From the sequence record PQ826431.1: a stretch of DNA of 64,000 bases; one strand, 5' to 3'. How positions within the stretch are numbered: the first letter of the stretch is position 1; each line of letters begins with the position of its first letter. The position numbers were made by a program, and so were the translations under genes. This document shows, one piece after another, positions 38,911 through 54,184 of the stretch. Source of the DNA: a phage. The notes under the pieces are model-generated. The model ran no database searches. It saw nothing but the letters and a program-made list of their open reading frames with translations, and was not told the DNA's origin.

Positions 38911-39470
38911 ACACCCTCGCTACGTAACTGTTGAAAAGATTTAGCCATTGCATCTTTTGTTGATAGGATAGGTTTAAAACCTTCGTCAAAAATCATATCG
39001 AAGCCCCAATCGATCCCTATGTCAGGATCATCCCAACGTAAACTTTGTTCACTAGAAGGGTCGTATGGAGTTGTGCATTTGTATTCAAAGATCGCATCCA
39101 TACTCAAAACTATAAAACCATGTGCCAAACCAGGAGGAAGCCAAAACTGCGTATGGTGTCGTGCACGAAGAACAACACCGTCCCAAGCACCGTAAGTTGG
39201 ACTGTCTTTACGTAAGTCTACAGCGAAATCCAATACTTCCCCACTTACACAACGAACAAGCTTACCTTGCGGATTATTTGTTTGAAAGTGCATTCCTCGC
39301 AAAACACCGAAGTTTGATTTAGACATATTATCTTGAACGAAAGTTTGTTTACCAATAATATCTTCGTATTTTTGTTCATTGTATGTTTCTAAAAAGAAAC
39401 CACGATCATCTTTATAAACGTCTGGTTTGATAATTACCGCACCTTCAATTTTTGTTTTTTCTACTTTCAT
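38904..39470 (-). CDS. rmlC: dTDP-4-dehydrorhamnose 3,5-epimerase
   Basis: DDRGFFLETY, FVQDN-SKS-FGVLRGMHFQ match RmlC cupin signature. Confidence 0.85.
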   Translation of the reverse strand: MKVEKTKIEGAVIIKPDVYKDDRGFFLETYNEQKYEDIIGKQTFVQDNMSKSNFGVLRGMHFQTNNPQGKLVRCVSGEVLDFAVDLRKDSPTYGAWDGVVLRARHHTQFWLPPGLAHGFIVLSMDAIFEYKCTTPYDPSSEQSLRWDDPDIGIDWGFDMIFDEGFKPILSTKDAMAKSFQQLRSEGVC

Positions 39471-39479
39471 TTTCTCTCC

Positions 39480-39806
39480 TTACCAGACATGTTGAGAAAT
39501 AATAGTTTCCGTTTTAATGTTATATTTTTCAAGTAGCTCTGCATAGGCTTCTTTTGCATTCTCATTCAATTGCTCAAGATCTACAGCTATGCTTCCTTCT
39601 CCACCTTCTAAATCAAGGCCATATATGCAATAAGACTCATCTGCATCGTAGAAAGGAGAGATGCGGCTTAAGTCAAGACCTTCTTGTAAGAACCAATTAA
39701 AATCTCCATCAAATTCTTCTTCAATTCTAGGATCTTCTCCTACAGCCTCTTCCCACTTATTAAAAGGTGCACCCTGTAACATACGCCATTCGATATCAAT
39801 ACCCAT
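39480..39806 (-). CDS. hypothetical acidic protein (108 aa)
   Basis: ORF track. Confidence 0.55.
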   Translation of the reverse strand: MGIDIEWRMLQGAPFNKWEEAVGEDPRIEEEFDGDFNWFLQEGLDLSRISPFYDADESYCIYGLDLEGGEGSIAVDLEQLNENAKEAYAELLEKYNIKTETIISQHVW

Positions 39807-40096: not shown

Positions 40097-40305
40097 TATT
40101 CCTCCTTAATTATTTCAAACTTGGCAACACCATTTACAATAATATGACCACAAGACATAACTCCTAGCCAAGGATCGCCGTTTTTCTTCAGGCGTTTACC
40201 GAATACATCACAAAAACCATTCTTCATTTCGGAGGCTTCATAAGAAGCCCCTTTGTCAAAAACGTCTTTGAATGTGTCGATTATACCAACACATCTCAAA
40301 ATCAT
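40096..40305 (-). CDS. hypothetical protein (69 aa)
   Basis: ORF track. Confidence 0.5.
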   Translation of the reverse strand: MILRCVGIIDTFKDVFDKGASYEASEMKNGFCDVFGKRLKKNGDPWLGVMSCGHIIVNGVAKFEIIKEE

Positions 40306-41390
40306 TAGAAGTCAAGCTCCTCATCATCAGAGAGATCTTTGTTAGCTGAATTCAATTTGTAGTTAGTTAACTGAATCTCTTGGGCTGCTGACTGAATCAA
40401 ATCAGGATTCAACCATTTTTCCATCCAAGCTAAAGGACTATGTTTAGGTGCTTTAAACTTAGCTTTCATTTTCAATCGACGATAAATAGGAGCAGCATTG
40501 AAATAAACCCACTGTTTAGACAATTCGGCGTTAAGACCTACAATAAAACGACCTTCACTAAACAGGTAGTCACACCACTGTTCCTCTTGTTCAACAACAG
40601 TGTCGAGGATCAAAGTCAACTCTTCAATATTGTCTTCGTAAATTTTACGCCAAATTGGGTCATGCATCAATGCATCAATTACAGCATAATCCATCTTAAC
40701 ATGCAAGATTTCATCTAGCATAATTTTCTGGATCAGTTTACAAGCCCCAACAAACAGTTGTTGTTCTGCCATAGCAAAAGTAGCAGAGAAGGAAGATATA
40801 AACTGAATACCTTCTAATCCAATCAGGGCTACCATCCCTTTAAGAATCAGCAGTCGAAGTTCATCGTTAGCTTCAATCAATCCTAGAGCATACTTATGAC
40901 CAGCTTCTTCCAACTGACCCATGATATCAGCAATGATACCCATACGATTGAAAATTTTATCATTAATCATAATCTGATTGATGACTTCAATTGGATCTGG
41001 AGTACATTGACGGATTATTTCAGAATACGTTAACGCATGGAGAACTTCCATTTCACTCTGCTTCATCATCATAGCACAGGCTTCATTGTTACTCAAGAAT
41101 GGAGAGAACAAAGTGATGATTGATTTTGCAAGAGAATCATTTTCCCATTGGAACGATAAGTTTTTAATCATAACATCATAGTTGTTTTTAGAACAAGCTA
41201 CGAAATCTTTACGTGTCTGATCCAGATTAACTTCGTTTTCATCCCAATCTTGTGCTTTTTGAAGTTTGTAGAGTTTGTGCATTTCTGGATAAGTTACGTT
41301 AACAGAATCAAAGATCCCTAATTGCTCCCCCAAAAATACTGGATATTTTCCTGTTTTGTAAACTTCATTGTGTAAATTAATTGCTGCCAT
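40305..41390 (-). CDS. nrdB: ribonucleotide reductase class Ia beta subunit
   Basis: di-iron ExxH motifs (MEVLHA, DEILHV), size and adjacency to nrdA. Confidence 0.85.
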   Translation of the reverse strand: MAAINLHNEVYKTGKYPVFLGEQLGIFDSVNVTYPEMHKLYKLQKAQDWDENEVNLDQTRKDFVACSKNNYDVMIKNLSFQWENDSLAKSIITLFSPFLSNNEACAMMMKQSEMEVLHALTYSEIIRQCTPDPIEVINQIMINDKIFNRMGIIADIMGQLEEAGHKYALGLIEANDELRLLILKGMVALIGLEGIQFISSFSATFAMAEQQLFVGACKLIQKIMLDEILHVKMDYAVIDALMHDPIWRKIYEDNIEELTLILDTVVEQEEQWCDYLFSEGRFIVGLNAELSKQWVYFNAAPIYRRLKMKAKFKAPKHSPLAWMEKWLNPDLIQSAAQEIQLTNYKLNSANKDLSDDEELDF

Positions 41391-41407: not shown

Positions 41408-41426
41408 AAAAAGGGGCCGAAGCCCC
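41408..41426 (-). terminator. UUCG-tetraloop hairpin + U5 (attenuator-like) immediately upstream of nrdB RBS
   Basis: GGGGC-UUCG-GCCCC followed by UUUUUAUUGAGGAGAA in minus-strand RNA. Confidence 0.55.
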
Positions 41427-41433
41427 TTTATAT

Positions 41434-42087
41434 TTAGCCTCGAAATACTGTTTTTGTTTCCGCCAGGTGCCAATAGAAATCCGCCTTGTTTACAAGAGTG
41501 TTGTACACCTCTGGATAAAAATGTTCTTCCTCTTTGTAACGATCCGCTGTTTCCCTGATTGACTTAGCTTTATCTTTTAGCCAAGCGAAGTGTGCCTCTT
41601 CCTCTGTAGCGAAGTAACCTAAATGCTTTCCTTTGTGTCCAGATGATTTAGAAGAAATCTTACCATCGGATTTTCTTACAGTTACCCCTAAAAGGGATTT
41701 TCTTTCCGTCCTTTTTGAGTAACTTAACAGAGTATTCACATATGCTGGAACAAACCTACAATACGCTGGACAATAGACCGTATTACCTTCAAGTACAAGG
41801 TCTTTGTCCAGAACAAAGTTTGCTACAAAGTTTTCTTGATACCACATGTCGAAGTTTGAAAACATAAACCACTCGTCACAAACCGTCACACCTGTATACC
41901 CAGGTCTTGCTTGTTCCATTTTATAGGCTCTTTCGAACATGTTTTTCCAAGCTTTGTAAGACGGGTCTGGCTTCCCGTCTACAAATAATCGTCTTTCTAC
42001 ATCAACTACTAAGGGGATTTCTCCCCTTTCGGTAGTAACGGTCACTGCACGTTTACCTTTGAGCATTTGACCTCCTACATGCTGCAA
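41434..42087 (-). CDS. homing endonuclease-like protein (degenerate HNH-type N-domain + AP2-like DNA-binding domain) between nrdA and nrdB
   Basis: YKAW..M..RAY...GVTVCDEW..F.NFDMW pattern shared with 52446 ORF; C-terminal GYFATEEEAHFAW AP2-like motif. Confidence 0.5.
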   Translation of the reverse strand: MQHVGGQMLKGKRAVTVTTERGEIPLVVDVERRLFVDGKPDPSYKAWKNMFERAYKMEQARPGYTGVTVCDEWFMFSNFDMWYQENFVANFVLDKDLVLEGNTVYCPAYCRFVPAYVNTLLSYSKRTERKSLLGVTVRKSDGKISSKSSGHKGKHLGYFATEEEAHFAWLKDKAKSIRETADRYKEEEHFYPEVYNTLVNKADFYWHLAETKTVFRG

Positions 42088-44321
42088 CCCTCACATCCAG
42101 ACTCTTTCAGGTTATCTTCTTGTGCTAAAGAATCTGCTGATTTTGTTCTACTATTAAGGTAATACAATGACTTACCACCCAGTCTAGCAAAGTTCAAAAT
42201 AAATTTCATCTCTTCTTTAACTGATAAACGTCCCCCTACCAATTTAGAATAATCTAACCAAGAATCACAAGAAATTCCTTGGTCCGTAAACTTGGTAAAG
42301 ATACCATACATTTCTGCAAGATCTTTAGCCGGAGTATCCCAGGCAGATTGGTAGAACATTTTCAGTTTTTCATAGTCTGGAACAATAAATAATACACTGC
42401 CTTTCTGACTTTGTTTATACATAATGGTATCACGAACAGGATACAGAGAGTTAGTAGTATTGCTTACCAAACTGCTGGACTCATTAGGTGCAATAGCAGC
42501 CAAGACACTGTTACGGATACCACCTTGTTCAATGATTTCAGCACGTAAGCCTTCCCAGTCCATTTTAAGATCAAAATTACCGATACTATCTACTGTTTTA
42601 GCATAAGTGTCAATTGGTAGCCAACCTTGAGGCCATTTGGTCTTATCGATCCACTCCGCATTACCTTTTTCCTTAGCCAGACGCAGAGAGGCTTTTGCCA
42701 ACCAAAAGTAATGACGTTCTGCAAGTTCATGCATTAATTTTTTAGCATAAGCATCTGAATAATTTACAAAATTACTTGCCAAGTAATGCGCTAAGTTTGT
42801 AATGCCTACACCAATAGATCTACGTGCTTTAGCAGTTATTTCGTTATGTTTAAATGGATAATCCATTGTTTCAATAACGTTGTCAATTGTCAATACAGTG
42901 TAGTATGCAACATCTTCATATTCTTCAGGTAATACACGACCAGCAACAATAGAAGATAAGAAACATAAAGCCAATTCTTGATCTTCTGTATTCTCACCAG
43001 TAAAGAGATCCGGCATACTGTGGAAAGCTTTAGTTGGTAAGAAGATCTCTTGACACAGGTTTGATTGATACACCGTATCCAGGAAAGGTGTATGGTTGTT
43101 AACGTTGTCAGCAAAGAACATGTAAATACGTCCTGTTTCTGCACGTTGAACAATAATCTCTGTCAGAAGATCACGAGCCTTAACAAATTTTTTCTTAATG
43201 CGACGACGGCTTACTTTGTCATAAACTGCATCAAACTCTTCTTCACTTTTATACAAAGCTTCATAAAGTTCAGGAGCATCATCACAACTAACTAACATCC
43301 AATCTTCGTTTTTTGCTGCTCGACGCAAGAACGAACGGTTAACAACAATAGAATAATCCAGTTTGTCTACTCGTTTATCTATAGGTGTTGTTGGATTCTT
43401 CAGTCGAATCAGATCGTCGAAGTCTGGTTCAAGTATGGTAAAGGTAACTGTAGCACTACCTCCACGGCTTGCTTGCTTCGAAGCTCCAACACTATCTTCC
43501 ATCCATTTCAGATACGGAAGAAGACCACCATGAATAATACGATTATTCTTAACACCTTGACCTGTGGCACGAGTTTGAAGATTAACACCAATACCTGCGT
43601 TATTCAACGTATACTCATGAGCTAAGTAATTAGCAATGGCTAAAGATTCTGCCGTATCGTCTGCACGGAATAAACAACAAGACGCACTTCCTTTGATTGG
43701 AGTTCGTAGAGTTGTCAGATACGGCGATGGCAGATTAATCTTAAGATCGCTAACATAAGTATAAAGTTTTTTAATATCTTCTATACGGCGTTCTTTTGGT
43801 TGGATCTCCATAACCTTCATTGCGATACCAATGAAAAGAAACTGTGGAGACTCATGCACCACATCGTTTACTGCATCTCGAATAAGATATTTATCTACCA
43901 TCTGACGTAAAACAGAATAACCATAAGTTAGATTTTTATTATGCTTTACAATCTTACCGATTTCTTTGATCTCTTCATCAGTATAATCCATTTTAGCCCA
44001 ATGTCCACGTTCTACCATATCATGATAAAAGGTATTCAGTGAAGGGATACTGTGGTATCCCCCATGAGCCTGTTTGTAAATCATACCCAGAAGAAGTCTT
44101 CCTGCCATATCACTGTAAGCTTGTGTTTTCTTGTCAATACACGCTGCAATCATTGCTTTATGCAGATCACGTGTAGACACACCGTCATAACACCGCTTCA
44201 CAGCTTCTAATTCAATTTCAGACCAGTTTAGTTTACCTGCTGCAAATTCAGACCACTTGCGAAGTTTTTCTGGATTAAACTCCTCTGTCTTACCGTTAGA
44301 TTTAGTTACAAAACGAATCAA
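42075..44321 (-). CDS. nrdA: ribonucleotide reductase class Ia alpha subunit
   Basis: 748 aa; ATP-cone N-terminus, catalytic-core motifs (NLCQEI, PNESSS), C-terminal CEGCSM tail analogous to T4/E. coli NrdA. Confidence 0.9.
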   Translation of the reverse strand: MIRFVTKSNGKTEEFNPEKLRKWSEFAAGKLNWSEIELEAVKRCYDGVSTRDLHKAMIAACIDKKTQAYSDMAGRLLLGMIYKQAHGGYHSIPSLNTFYHDMVERGHWAKMDYTDEEIKEIGKIVKHNKNLTYGYSVLRQMVDKYLIRDAVNDVVHESPQFLFIGIAMKVMEIQPKERRIEDIKKLYTYVSDLKINLPSPYLTTLRTPIKGSASCCLFRADDTAESLAIANYLAHEYTLNNAGIGVNLQTRATGQGVKNNRIIHGGLLPYLKWMEDSVGASKQASRGGSATVTFTILEPDFDDLIRLKNPTTPIDKRVDKLDYSIVVNRSFLRRAAKNEDWMLVSCDDAPELYEALYKSEEEFDAVYDKVSRRRIKKKFVKARDLLTEIIVQRAETGRIYMFFADNVNNHTPFLDTVYQSNLCQEIFLPTKAFHSMPDLFTGENTEDQELALCFLSSIVAGRVLPEEYEDVAYYTVLTIDNVIETMDYPFKHNEITAKARRSIGVGITNLAHYLASNFVNYSDAYAKKLMHELAERHYFWLAKASLRLAKEKGNAEWIDKTKWPQGWLPIDTYAKTVDSIGNFDLKMDWEGLRAEIIEQGGIRNSVLAAIAPNESSSLVSNTTNSLYPVRDTIMYKQSQKGSVLFIVPDYEKLKMFYQSAWDTPAKDLAEMYGIFTKFTDQGISCDSWLDYSKLVGGRLSVKEEMKFILNFARLGGKSLYYLNSRTKSADSLAQEDNLKESGCEGCSM

Positions 44322-46736: not shown

Positions 46737-46764
46737 AGTATAGTTATCTTATACTAACTTTCAA
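46737..46764 (-). promoter_or_regulatory. promoter on minus strand (TTGAAA-16-TATACT)
   Basis: reverse-complement reading; upstream of 46715 start. Confidence 0.45.
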
Positions 46765-47329
46765 TTTCCTGCAATAGGATTTTGACTATTTGTTTGCGGC
46801 GTTTTGCTACTGTGCTTTCAGGTTCTATTTTACGCTTCTTCAGCCATGCCTTATCTTTCTTAGCTCTACACAAAGCTATCGCTTCTTTTTCAGCTTTTGC
46901 TTCTTCAAAAGATATGCCTTGCTTGTCTGCATAAGCAAGAATAGAGTTGCACAATTTACAAACCATTCGCAAATCTTCTTCTTTCACATAGATCAAACGG
47001 AAAACAAAAAGAGGAATATCATCAAAACATTGAAGTTGTTTTGCTGCGTGAATATGATCCACTTGGAAGTCTTTCATTCCTCCCCTATGTCCACATATTT
47101 CGCACTCACAATTCCAAACTTGTTTTGGTTTTCCAGTTTTCTTGTCTATCATTACATTGCCGTCTTTATCTACTCGATCAACTTTAAAACGCCTTGCATT
47201 GATAACCTTAATTTTATTAGGGTGTCTCATCCATGCTTTTCTAAAACATCCCCTAAGATAAGTATAAAATTCAGCTTGTGTTTTCCAGGGTGTTCCTTCA
47301 CCCCACATTATTTTTGGTTCACCTGCCAA
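46754..47329 (-). CDS. HNH endonuclease, 191 aa
   Basis: CECEICGH...DFQVDHIHA...LCKLCN (CxxC-HNH-CxxC); start uncertain. Confidence 0.6.
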   Translation of the reverse strand: MAGEPKIMWGEGTPWKTQAEFYTYLRGCFRKAWMRHPNKIKVINARRFKVDRVDKDGNVMIDKKTGKPKQVWNCECEICGHRGGMKDFQVDHIHAAKQLQCFDDIPLFVFRLIYVKEEDLRMVCKLCNSILAYADKQGISFEEAKAEKEAIALCRAKKDKAWLKKRKIEPESTVAKRRKQIVKILLQEIES

Positions 47330-52445: not shown

Positions 52446-53075
52446 TTATGTTTTAATCTTGCCAAAATACAATACTTCAGCTTCCTGTCTTGCTGATATA
52501 GCATCTTCAATATCAGTAAATGCTCCAAGACGGATATCTTTTCCTTGATAGGATATACGAGCAATCCATCTTTTTTCTTTCTCGCTCCACACAACACCTG
52601 TTTTACCAGAAGTGTTGTTTTTCTGTTTTCGTGTATTGTATGACTGGACAGACCTTGTAGCCCAGCGACAATTTTCTTTACTGTAATCTTTTTCCGAGTC
52701 TATTCTGTCAAGAGATAAACCTTTAGGTCTATCTCCCATATCCTCAAAAAATGCAGAGAATGAATTTCTCCAAGCATCGCAGACCTTAATACCACGACCA
52801 CCGTAGTATTCAAAGTGAGTATTGTTTTTGTTATAGCATCTCCCTAACATAGCTTCCCACGATTTGTATGCTCCTGTTTGTGTTGTTTGCGGTCTACACT
52901 TCGAACAATAAGAACTTTTATTCTTCCTAAGTGTTGCCATAGTTACCGTGCAAATATTACCACAATCACAAGAACAAGTAAAACGTCTTTTGCCATGCTT
53001 GTCCCTTTCAATCTCTTCTAAGACAGTATAACAACCACATTTCTTACCTACAAGGTCTACTCTCTTGGCTCCCAT
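52446..53075 (-). CDS. HNH-AP2 family homing endonuclease-like protein, 209 aa
   Basis: LDRIDSEKDYSKENCRWAT (HNH_3-like) and C-terminal AP2-like WIARISYQGKDIRLGAFTDIEDA. Confidence 0.6.
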   Translation of the reverse strand: MGAKRVDLVGKKCGCYTVLEEIERDKHGKRRFTCSCDCGNICTVTMATLRKNKSSYCSKCRPQTTQTGAYKSWEAMLGRCYNKNNTHFEYYGGRGIKVCDAWRNSFSAFFEDMGDRPKGLSLDRIDSEKDYSKENCRWATRSVQSYNTRKQKNNTSGKTGVVWSEKEKRWIARISYQGKDIRLGAFTDIEDAISARQEAEVLYFGKIKT

Positions 53076-54184
53076 GTTCCCTCCACCATTTCCCGTAAAC
53101 GGACACCTGTTGGTTTAGTAGGTATTCCACCATCAGAAAACTCTTCATACTCAATCTCAACAAATTTACCAATTAACATTTCGGCATTCTCTGCTTTACG
53201 ATAATTGATAGTCTCATGAGCATCTTTACGCATTAAGAATTCGACTACTTTACCATTTTCCATCTCACCTGTCAACACTCCATCGCCATTTTTATCACTT
53301 TTTGAATTTGTTACTTTAACTTCAAGGGTGTGGCGAGGCTTACGTTTAATAACGTCATAAGAACGTTTATCAAATTCGTAAACTCCGTGAGCATTACGAT
53401 ATACTACACCTTCAGCTTTCTCAAGTAAAGCTTTTTCATAGAAAGCATCAAACTGTTCTTGGTTTTCAATATACTCTGTATGAACTACGCAAATAAGCTC
53501 GTCAAGACCATAATCTTCAACTACTGCCTTAAGAGCAGTAAGAACATCAACACGTTTTTCAAACGGTAGATCTGGAACTGGAATATCGTATACGTAATAG
53601 TTCAGCAAAGGTGTATTTGCATTATGCTTCTTCCAGGCACTGTTAATTTGTTGTAGACTAAGGACACCTAACCCAGCAAACACTTCACCATCAAGAGGAT
53701 GACCAACAACTTCACTAATAAAGTTTGGAATACCTTTCCAATGAGGTGGCAGGTTGTACACTTCCCCAGCTTTTGATAAACACTCTCCTTTCATGTTAAT
53801 CATAGAACGTAACCCGTTCAGTTTGTATTGTGCATAACCAGGGAACACAACCCTTTCAGGATAATCTTTATAATCCTGGCATTTCATTGGTGTGGAAGGA
53901 ACATGGTTTTCAGCTTCTTCTTTTGTTTTATAATAGCCATTCTTTAACTGTTTTGTCCATTTGGCAAAAGCTTCAAGTTCAGCTTGTTCTTCTGGTGTTG
54001 TTTCATTGGAACGACCAATGTTTTTTGCTTCTGCTGTATAAGATTTTTCTGTGATTTTTCCACCTACCCTTCCATGAGCTACAGTAACAACTGCACCATC
54101 TGTATACACTGTCCACTGTTTAAGTTTTCCTTTTGAATCTTTACCATACAGCGTTTGATTTGTTTGTTGCATTAGTCCTCCCAC
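53057..54184 (-). CDS. ATP-dependent DNA ligase-like protein, 375 aa
   Basis: nucleotidyltransferase motifs I (KLNGLR, Asn replacing usual Asp), III (DGEVFA), IV (EGVVYR), V (VIKRK). Confidence 0.6.
   Translation of the reverse strand: MGGLMQQTNQTLYGKDSKGKLKQWTVYTDGAVVTVAHGRVGGKITEKSYTAEAKNIGRSNETTPEEQAELEAFAKWTKQLKNGYYKTKEEAENHVPSTPMKCQDYKDYPERVVFPGYAQYKLNGLRSMINMKGECLSKAGEVYNLPPHWKGIPNFISEVVGHPLDGEVFAGLGVLSLQQINSAWKKHNANTPLLNYYVYDIPVPDLPFEKRVDVLTALKAVVEDYGLDELICVVHTEYIENQEQFDAFYEKALLEKAEGVVYRNAHGVYEFDKRSYDVIKRKPRHTLEVKVTNSKSDKNGDGVLTGEMENGKVVEFLMRKDAHETINYRKAENAEMLIGKFVEIEYEEFSDGGIPTKPTGVRLREMVEGTWEPRE

Follow-up and report, generated by a model that had tools for sequence, protein, structure and literature searches.

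Background

IPA-HNH homing endonuclease genes (HEGs) were defined by Barth, Dunham and Seed in 2023, with ICP1 Gp59 as one of three founders beside the fused Gp115-Gp116 ('Gp114-115' in the methods of that paper) and Gp209 (PMC10448857). In the parts of that paper on which we draw, the family combines a C-terminal AP2 domain with an N-terminal domain that is related to HNH but diverges too far for Pfam HNH_3 to detect it; its genes are free-standing and lie beside essential genes (ribonucleotide reductase, RNR, neighborhoods being 18% of the cases), and it is stated to be absent from T4. Here, we describe a gene with this architecture in phage record PQ826431.1, of which a stretch of 64,000 nt was analyzed (the window; positions count from its first letter). 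It is the minus-strand open reading frame (ORF) listed at 41434-42087, between the genes for the large (nrdA) and small (nrdB) RNR subunits.

Other described systems are also close to it. HNH-AP2 endonucleases are known from phages and cyanobacteria (Magnani et al. 2004, as cited in PMC10448857 and PMC5714182). PacI is an HNH enzyme without the histidine, in which the metal ligands are Asp and Asn and the His base is replaced by a Tyr of the omega-loop (PMC5714182, PMC4081073, PMC3384342); R.PacI (PDB 3LDY/3M7K) forms group 20 of the His-Me finger classification (PMC5714182). In T4, the gene order is nrdA, mobE, nrdB.1, nrdB. Among the titles and abstracts found in a literature search on phapecoctavirus homing endonucleases, none was specific to the nrdA-nrdB junction.

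Family membership and domain architecture

We consider it likely, from sequence comparison, that this gene is an intact, free-standing IPA-HNH homing endonuclease gene, with a divergent HNH-like domain lacking the histidine and an AP2 domain. It was apparently copied recently into the window genome.

By its homology and architecture, the gene belongs to the published IPA-HNH/AP2 family. The comparison to the founders was made with ICP1 Gp59 and gave 32% identity over 164 aa (BLASTP, expectation value, E, 9e-25); the aligned part includes LDKDIILSGNKVYCPEYCRLVPEKIN, and both proteins share the signature LDKD...Y.P..C....N. The N-terminal domain lies beyond Pfam HNH_3, and the C-terminal one is of the AP2 type. 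In PHROGs, the window protein falls in phrog_953 (Table 1) and phrog_374, both labeled 'HNH endonuclease', and no match to a non-nuclease family was found. An exhaustive profile search retrieved 47168 cluster representatives at E <= 0.001, with 6198 at E <= 1e-30 (clusters at 50% identity), and tblastn against phage genomes matched 1409 records, including Vibrio phage ICP1 and Rheinheimera "Barba" phages, many with several places per genome. Against PDB sequences, phmmer gave a chance-level match only.

The AlphaFold (AF2) model is confident, with a predicted local distance difference test (pLDDT) of 86.6 over the whole protein and 89.7 over residues 28-124, and it predicts a beta-beta-alpha topology. 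For the AP2 domain, a 133-sequence family profile matched solved AP2/ERF domains at E values from 2.7e-7 to 0.011 (WRI1 2.7e-7, ERF096 0.0015, AtERF1 0.0026), and homologues P0013 and P0015 carry a precomputed PF00847 match.

Like Gp59 and the IPA-HNH genes, the window gene has a divergent HNH-like domain followed by AP2, and it is free-standing and adjoins essential genes. Unlike them, its clade resides in Stephanstirmvirinae coliphages and not in the ICP1, Barbaviruses or Flaumdraviruses of the IPA-HNH paper, carries an N-terminal beta-hairpin and a C-terminal helical hairpin, and lacks two of the four family cysteines. The beta-hairpin extension is found only in the nrd-junction clade, and its GEIPL motif is kept only in homologues P0002-P0008. 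With the HNH-AP2 or I-HmuI-type HNH_3 enzymes, the gene shares the nuclease and AP2 modules on selfish phage genes; however, those enzymes present the canonical D-H...N...N/H and match Pfam HNH_3, whereas the window protein has a Lys at the His position.

The nrdA-nrdB junction in related phages

The window comes from a phAPEC8-like coliphage, a myophage of the genus Phapecoctavirus, subfamily Stephanstirmvirinae. The 4.5-kb stretch around the gene has matches in 128 phage records, of which only Escherichia phage EF1-1 spans it in full, at 98.5%. The window protein is 100% identical to gp102 of EF1-1 (annotated 'HNH endonuclease'), with three synonymous differences at the DNA level.

When the nrdA-nrdB junction was compared across 73 related phage records, presence of the gene was polymorphic at one fixed site: 22 records carry it at full length and about 36 (Mt1B1_P17 and about 35 others) match an empty 44-bp junction without interruption. 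The Mt1B1_P17-type empty junction contains ...GATGGTGGTTGTGAAGCTTGCAAGATGTGATGAAACTAGGGGC... In all, the junction was seen in six states. The gene stands alone in the window, EF1-1, ETEC-TG, nieznany, and phi92, and together with an unrelated 112-aa ORF (orf112) beside nrdB in ESCO5, vB_Ec-G1, and MirsaeidiM_Esher1. ESCO25 has orf112 alone, as do phAPEC8, UP17, dw-ec, DIJ07P1, and SF1-1 by insert size. ZCKP1 has orf112 and an internally deleted remnant of the gene (L002:1496-1704), in which about 155 nt from the 3' end follow on about 30 nt from the 5' end. Finally, DE16 keeps a scar (L007:1500-1569), in which the terminator hairpin is fused to all that is left of the gene, its ribosome-binding site and initial six codons. 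Thus, the ORF is not fixed among the relatives, and the initial annotation of this DNA, which saw a mobile endonuclease at this site, is supported by the carriers, the empty junctions, the remnant and the scar, and by the 687-bp cassette found in a gene-less backbone.

The footprint of this cassette was obtained by a three-way comparison of informative sites in the window, EF1-1 and Mt1B1_P17. Over its 687 nt, the window presents three mismatches to EF1-1, and Mt1B1_P17 has 41 nt in its place. The other 2208 nt of nrdA show 46 mismatches to EF1-1 vs. six to Mt1B1_P17, and the next 2426 nt show 20 to EF1-1 vs. none to the gene-less Mt1B1_P17. The last Mt1B1-type markers are at 41412 and 42132, so the gene and at most about 57 bp on the nrdA side and about 22 bp on the nrdB side were put into a backbone of the empty type. 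These sites suggest that the cassette arrived recently, by homing or recombination. At about 39470-39480, EF1-1 (L013:3868-5747) has two extra dTDP-sugar genes, a glucose-1-phosphate thymidylyltransferase and a second epimerase; both are absent from the window and Mt1B1_P17, a further sign of the Mt1B1_P17-type backbone of the window.

The last 39 nt of nrdA moved with the gene, as in co-conversion, and other carriers show longer linked haplotypes. This recoded end may represent the disrupted target or the immunity region. The nrdA C-terminus exists in three versions over the last ~40 nt (aligned with gaps by MAFFT, with a 3-nt indel in nrdA), and the C-terminal CxxC is present in all three. 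Empty sites end in ...DSDGGCEACKM*; ETEC-TG-type alleles, the DE16 scar and the ZCKP1 remnant in ...DSEDEGCSACKM; and the window, EF1-1 and ESCO25 in ...DNLKESGCEGCSM, of which MirsaeidiM_Esher1 has a one-residue variant, DNLKESSCEGCSM*.

The gene alleles at the junction are 73-80% identical to the window allele in nucleotides, with synonymous divergence (dS) of 0.85-2.9 and a nonsynonymous to synonymous ratio (dN/dS) of 0.06-0.15. Judging by the substitution pattern, the alleles are under purifying selection and the gene is not a pseudogene. A mosaic structure is seen in the window allele. From about 41630 to the stop (~200 nt of the 3' end), it is 98-100% identical to the ETEC-TG/nieznany allele; its 5' two-thirds (~430 nt), which hold the nuclease-like domain together with the first strands of AP2, are about 60-85% identical to it (40-nt blocks) and include an 8-9-codon deletion after residue 28. 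An intragenic recombination breakpoint lies inside the AP2 domain, at about 41630. In metagenomic contigs of related phages, the same junction contains orthologues at 51-60% identity: this endonuclease lineage has been tied to the nrdA-nrdB site for a long time.

The strongest competitor to a homing endonuclease gene, although an unlikely one in our judgement, is a 'moron'-like optional cassette moved by general recombination only, whose protein would be idle in its own spread and maybe active elsewhere or against competing phages. The flanks are 99-100% identical among phages, which makes recombination easy, the alleles are themselves recombinant, and orf112, a second optional ORF at the junction, has no nuclease signature and varies independently. 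However, the sharply recoded 39 nt of nrdA are tightly linked to the gene, and the DE16 scar and the ZCKP1 remnant keep the gene-linked nrdA allele; both observations fit target disruption and immunity. Moreover, the lineage keeps the exact site down to 51% identity, and the family overall shows the traits of HEGs, as presented in PMC10448857.

As a homing endonuclease gene, it would let one junction in culturable coliphages show the life cycle of a HEG: invasion, divergence, internal deletion, and loss with the linked nrdA allele kept. The nrdA-nrdB junction of phapecoctaviruses is also a tolerated, naturally variable insertion site, which matters for annotation and phage engineering. The practical impact is modest. 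GenBank relatives already have the gene labeled as an HNH endonuclease, and the description of the family dates from 2023.

Regarding the second optional cassette, orf112 occurs with or without the endonuclease gene and overlaps the nrdB start by 14 nt (ESCO25 L008:1378-1716; ESCO5 L004:1158-1496; ZCKP1 L002:1157-1495; vB_Ec-G1 L006:1158-1496). It is absent from the window, where its place would be about 41391. It has no Pfam match, and the ESCO25 version is strongly different from those of ESCO5, ZCKP1 and Ec-G1. Among the records, MG065650 ('Campylobacter phage B15') and OP562383 ('Acinetobacter phage vB_AbaM_ABPW7') are >99% identical to E. coli phapecoctaviruses over the nrd region, and their host labels are questionable.

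Catalytic motif and proposed mechanism

The initial annotation read the letters of the motif as they are, with DKDL where the related gene at 52446-53075 has DRID and with no clear N-H pair, but it took them for a degenerate catalytic motif of a decaying or domesticated element. This second step is not supported by the comparison to the family. We aligned the window protein with 151 relatives, nearly all from a library of 50%-identity cluster representatives. R46, Y57, D87, K88, D89, C103, and N111 are invariant in the 152 sequences, and Y98 is found in 151 of them; the window protein keeps all eight. Its residues 86-90 read LDKDL, and the predicted beta-beta-alpha unit contains no histidine. 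In the AF2 model, strand 1 ends with D87-K88, the loop contains Y98, and N111 belongs to the helix of this unit (codons of D87-K88-D89 at 41800-41808, Y98 at 41773-41775, and N111 at 41734-41736).

Since the supposedly degenerate residues are invariant across the family, a degenerate motif is not supported. On the evidence of the alignment, and with Gp59 carrying the same motif, "DKDL" is a conserved family signature and not a decayed HNH motif. This corrects a tempting misreading: in such phage "HNH-AP2" genes, the missing histidines of H-N-H are a family trait and not decay.

The gene at 52446-53075 is a distant paralogue and belongs to the 'DRID' subfamily. The window protein matches it by BLASTP with 24% identity (E 3e-5), hhalign of the family of the window protein (DKD family) against the paralogue family gives a probability of 99.25% over 132 columns covering both domains, and both proteins match the PHROG families 953 and 374. 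Together with the AP2 family profile, these matches agree with the N-terminal pattern and AP2 motif that had been proposed as common to both genes. Pfam and NCBIfam scans of the paralogue protein gave no match. It reads LDRID, also without the canonical histidine, whose position is an Arg both here and in PacI. R124, Y131, N135, C136, and W138 are invariant in 109 relatives of the paralogue, and the motif aligns with PacI VDRSDSFEGYSPQNARL. Residues 24-68 of the paralogue, at its N-terminus, are zinc-ribbon-like (CxC...CxxC) and weakly resemble ribosomal protein bL31 (E 0.008), and the gene overlaps the end of an upstream 375-aa ORF (53057-54184) by 19 nt.

PacI was the best structural match of the domain model. 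Its motif, VDRSDSFEGYSPQNARLACFICN, has eight residues from D to Y and 13 from Y to N (Y100-N113). The window protein motif, LDKDLVLEGNTVYCPAYCRFVPAYVN, has 11 and 13 (Y98-N111), and the paralogue motif, LDRIDSEKDYSKENCRW, has eight from D to Y, a Q at the aligned N position and an invariant N 16 residues after the Y. PacI and the window protein have in common the pattern D-[R/K]-x-D ... Y-S-P ... N with equal Tyr-to-Asn spacing and no His, and the Y-S-P motif is common to PacI and the family of the window protein. Nevertheless, PacI, a type IIP restriction enzyme, is a homodimer of 142-aa subunits that each have two Cys4 zinc sites, and it lacks an AP2 domain, whereas the window protein has at most two PacI-type cysteines (C63 and C103 at family positions) and a D-to-Y loop three residues longer. 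For the paralogue family against the PacI family, hhalign gave a pairwise E of 9e-4 over 25 columns with a probability of 22.6%; hmmsearch of the paralogue family against PacI aligned the motif only, with a database-level E that was not significant.

Because the support for the PacI link at the sequence level is weak, the PacI-type mechanism is something that we infer. By analogy, the window endonuclease probably cuts with a PacI-like Asp/Tyr/Asn site. More tentatively, and with slightly more doubt than conviction, we suggest that the IPA-HNH family may be a clade of PacI-type His-less nucleases that use the omega-loop Y98 and Asp/Asn metal ligands. The parts of the IPA-HNH paper on which we draw propose no PacI-type active site for the family (PMC10448857). 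If true, a chemistry documented so far in a single rare-cutting restriction enzyme would be how one of the most abundant kinds of phage homing endonuclease works. The phapecoctavirus nrdA-nrdB junction would then be a tractable natural test system: the E. coli phages that share 96-100% identity around it offer its empty, filled, remnant and scar alleles.

The spread of the gene may be pictured as follows. The gene would be co-transcribed with nrdA and translated from the Shine-Dalgarno sequence that overlaps the nrdA stop. During co-infection with an empty-junction phage, the AP2 and flanking modules would bind at or near the nrdA 3' end and the intergenic region; the beta-beta-alpha-metal unit would cut or nick the empty-junction DNA. 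In a PacI-type site, D87 and N111 would act as metal ligands and Y98, in the omega-loop, as base or nucleophile, with K88 at the canonical His position. Repair from the gene-carrying genome would then copy in the gene and a short flank, and the recoded nrdA 3' end would protect the carrier against cleavage. Nuclease activity, the roles of the residues, the target site and carrier immunity are all to be taken as presumptive, the roles of the residues being assigned by analogy.

Several observations weigh against an active homing endonuclease. Scans of the window protein gave no match in Pfam, HNH_3 (PF13392), HNH (PF01844) and AP2 included, and none in NCBIfam. At the end of the first beta-strand, an invariant Lys of the family, K88, takes the place of the canonical catalytic histidine. 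Four cysteines, at positions 47, 60, 63, and 103, are found in about half of the family, where the window clade has A, V, C, and C; this loss could weaken a structural zinc site, if those cysteines bind zinc. The hhalign comparison of the DKD family to PacI or the PacI family was not significant (probability 0.3-0.4%). Ordinary homologous recombination in the strongly conserved nrd flanks could also produce a clean cassette, with no targeted break. Lastly, in the parts drawn on here, PMC10448857, the one paper found to name the family, calls the IPA-HNH genes HEGs from domain architecture and comparative genomics.

The absent histidine, the failed HNH matches in Pfam and NCBIfam, and the two lost cysteines are also what would favor the view of the initial annotation, a nuclease-dead relic or a domesticated DNA-binding protein such as an AP2-type nrd regulator. 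We rate it as improbable, a shade below the 'moron'-like cassette. The phi92 orthologue is annotated as 'potential transcription factor', and strong purifying selection is expected of a domesticated gene too. Nonetheless, the residues taken as degenerate are the invariant signature of the whole family and fit the active-site logic of PacI, an active enzyme. The A-V-C-C pattern occurs in 14 sequences, several of them outside the nrd-junction clade, and is thus not a private lesion. Furthermore, the gene is missing in about half of otherwise 96-100% identical phages and deleted or scarred in others, which one would not expect of a useful host function, and it rides on a recently transferred cassette. 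With motif invariance and dN/dS as they are, a decaying or domesticated element is not the reading that we retain; an intact homing endonuclease gene is.

Gene start and neighboring genes

The listed ORF starts at a TTG (42087) inside the nrdA 3' end. The likely start of the endonuclease gene is the ATG at 42066, giving 633 nt and 210 aa; with this choice, the gene is the same 210-aa gene as annotated in EF1-1. An AGGAGG precedes this ATG, and in phage phi92 an AGGAGG ribosome-binding site is annotated at the equivalent place. In the window, the overlap of the AGGAGG with the nrdA stop would allow co-transcription and coupled translation with nrdA. That the ORF is spurious or a mis-called extension of nrdA, as its TTG start within nrdA might hint, has practically no chance and is already refuted by the homology and selection data: there are thousands of homologous proteins with strong similarity, a confident structure model, a dN/dS far under 1, and the gene's own Shine-Dalgarno and ATG.

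Pfam supports both nrdA and nrdB (Table 1), and the ORF is free-standing and exactly between them, where it had been placed at the outset. The ATP-cone match of nrdA is weak (E 1.2e-4; 23.0 bits vs. the 25.8-bit cut-off of Pfam). The gene is located between the nrdA stop codon and a hairpin ahead of nrdB, which carries a 'terminator' label in phage Schickermooser and is followed by the nrdB ribosome-binding site. A consensus terminator scan did not flag this hairpin.

Table 1. Coordinates of the endonuclease gene, its parts, its neighbors and its paralogue in the window
Feature	Positions	Strand	Details
Homing-endonuclease-like CDS (coding sequence)	41434..42066	-	210 aa; stop TAA 41434-41436; phrog_953 E 2.5e-57
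N-terminal beta-hairpin extension, residues 1-29	41980..42066	-	AF2 strands E6-12, E15-21
IPA-HNH nuclease-like domain, residues 30-124	41695..41979	-	helical subdomain, then beta-beta-alpha unit
Predicted beta-beta-alpha-metal unit, residues 84-114	41725..41817	-	AF2 E84-87, E104-107, H108-114
AP2/ERF-type DNA-binding domain, residues about 125-166	41569..41694	-	family profile; AF2 three strands and helix
C-terminal helical hairpin, residues 167-210	41437..41568	-	AF2 helices H155-178, H185-203
EF1-1-type cassette, 687 bp	41427..42113	.	gene, last 39 nt of nrdA and 7 nt past the gene stop
Recoded nrdA 3' end linked to the gene	42075..42113	-	8 mismatches and 8 gap columns vs. Mt1B1_P17
Shine-Dalgarno AGGAGG	42071..42076	-	overlaps nrdA stop TAG (42075-42077), 4 nt ahead of the ATG
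GGGGCTTCGGCCCC hairpin and T-run	41413..41426	-	in filled and empty junctions alike; left boundary of the cassette
nrdA, class Ia RNR large subunit, upstream neighbor	42075..44321	-	Pfam Ribonuc_red_lgC 1.8e-97, Ribonuc_red_lgN 3.3e-11
nrdB, RNR small subunit, downstream neighbor	40305..41390	-	Pfam Ribonuc_red_sm 6.3e-33
His-less HNH-like/AP2 paralogue, 'DRID' subfamily	52446..53075	-	phrog_374 1e-72

The position of the gene recalls that of T4 mobE: both lie directly past the nrdA stop and ahead of nrdB, with a presumed lifestyle in common, and T4 and some phapecoctaviruses have a further small ORF before nrdB. However, T4 MobE matches the canonical Pfam HNH and has no AP2 domain, and homology was rejected (BLASTP E 8.4). 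With no sequence similarity to MobE, the window gene is an analogue of mobE and not a homologue; the parallel to T4 that had been drawn is one of position only. As for the small ORFs, orf112 was rejected as a homologue of T4 nrdB.1, to which it shows no similarity.

Other nuclease-like genes were observed in the vicinity. The ORF at 46754-47329 (minus strand) encodes 191 aa of HNH type with ...VDHIH... and CKLCN, and it has syntenic counterparts named 'HNH endonuclease' in EF1-1 and Mt1B1_P17. Because all three phages carry it in synteny, it looks fixed in them; a Pfam scan of this ORF gave no significant HNH match. In metagenomic relatives (L016:78-506, L017:70-489), HNH_3 and LAGLIDADG_1 (weak) and LAGLIDADG_3 (faint) genes lie beside a Thy1-like gene. 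In some related contigs but not in others, such genes are next to this Thy1-like gene, which lies a few kb upstream of nrdA, and from this variability the nucleotide-metabolism block may be a hot spot for endonuclease genes.

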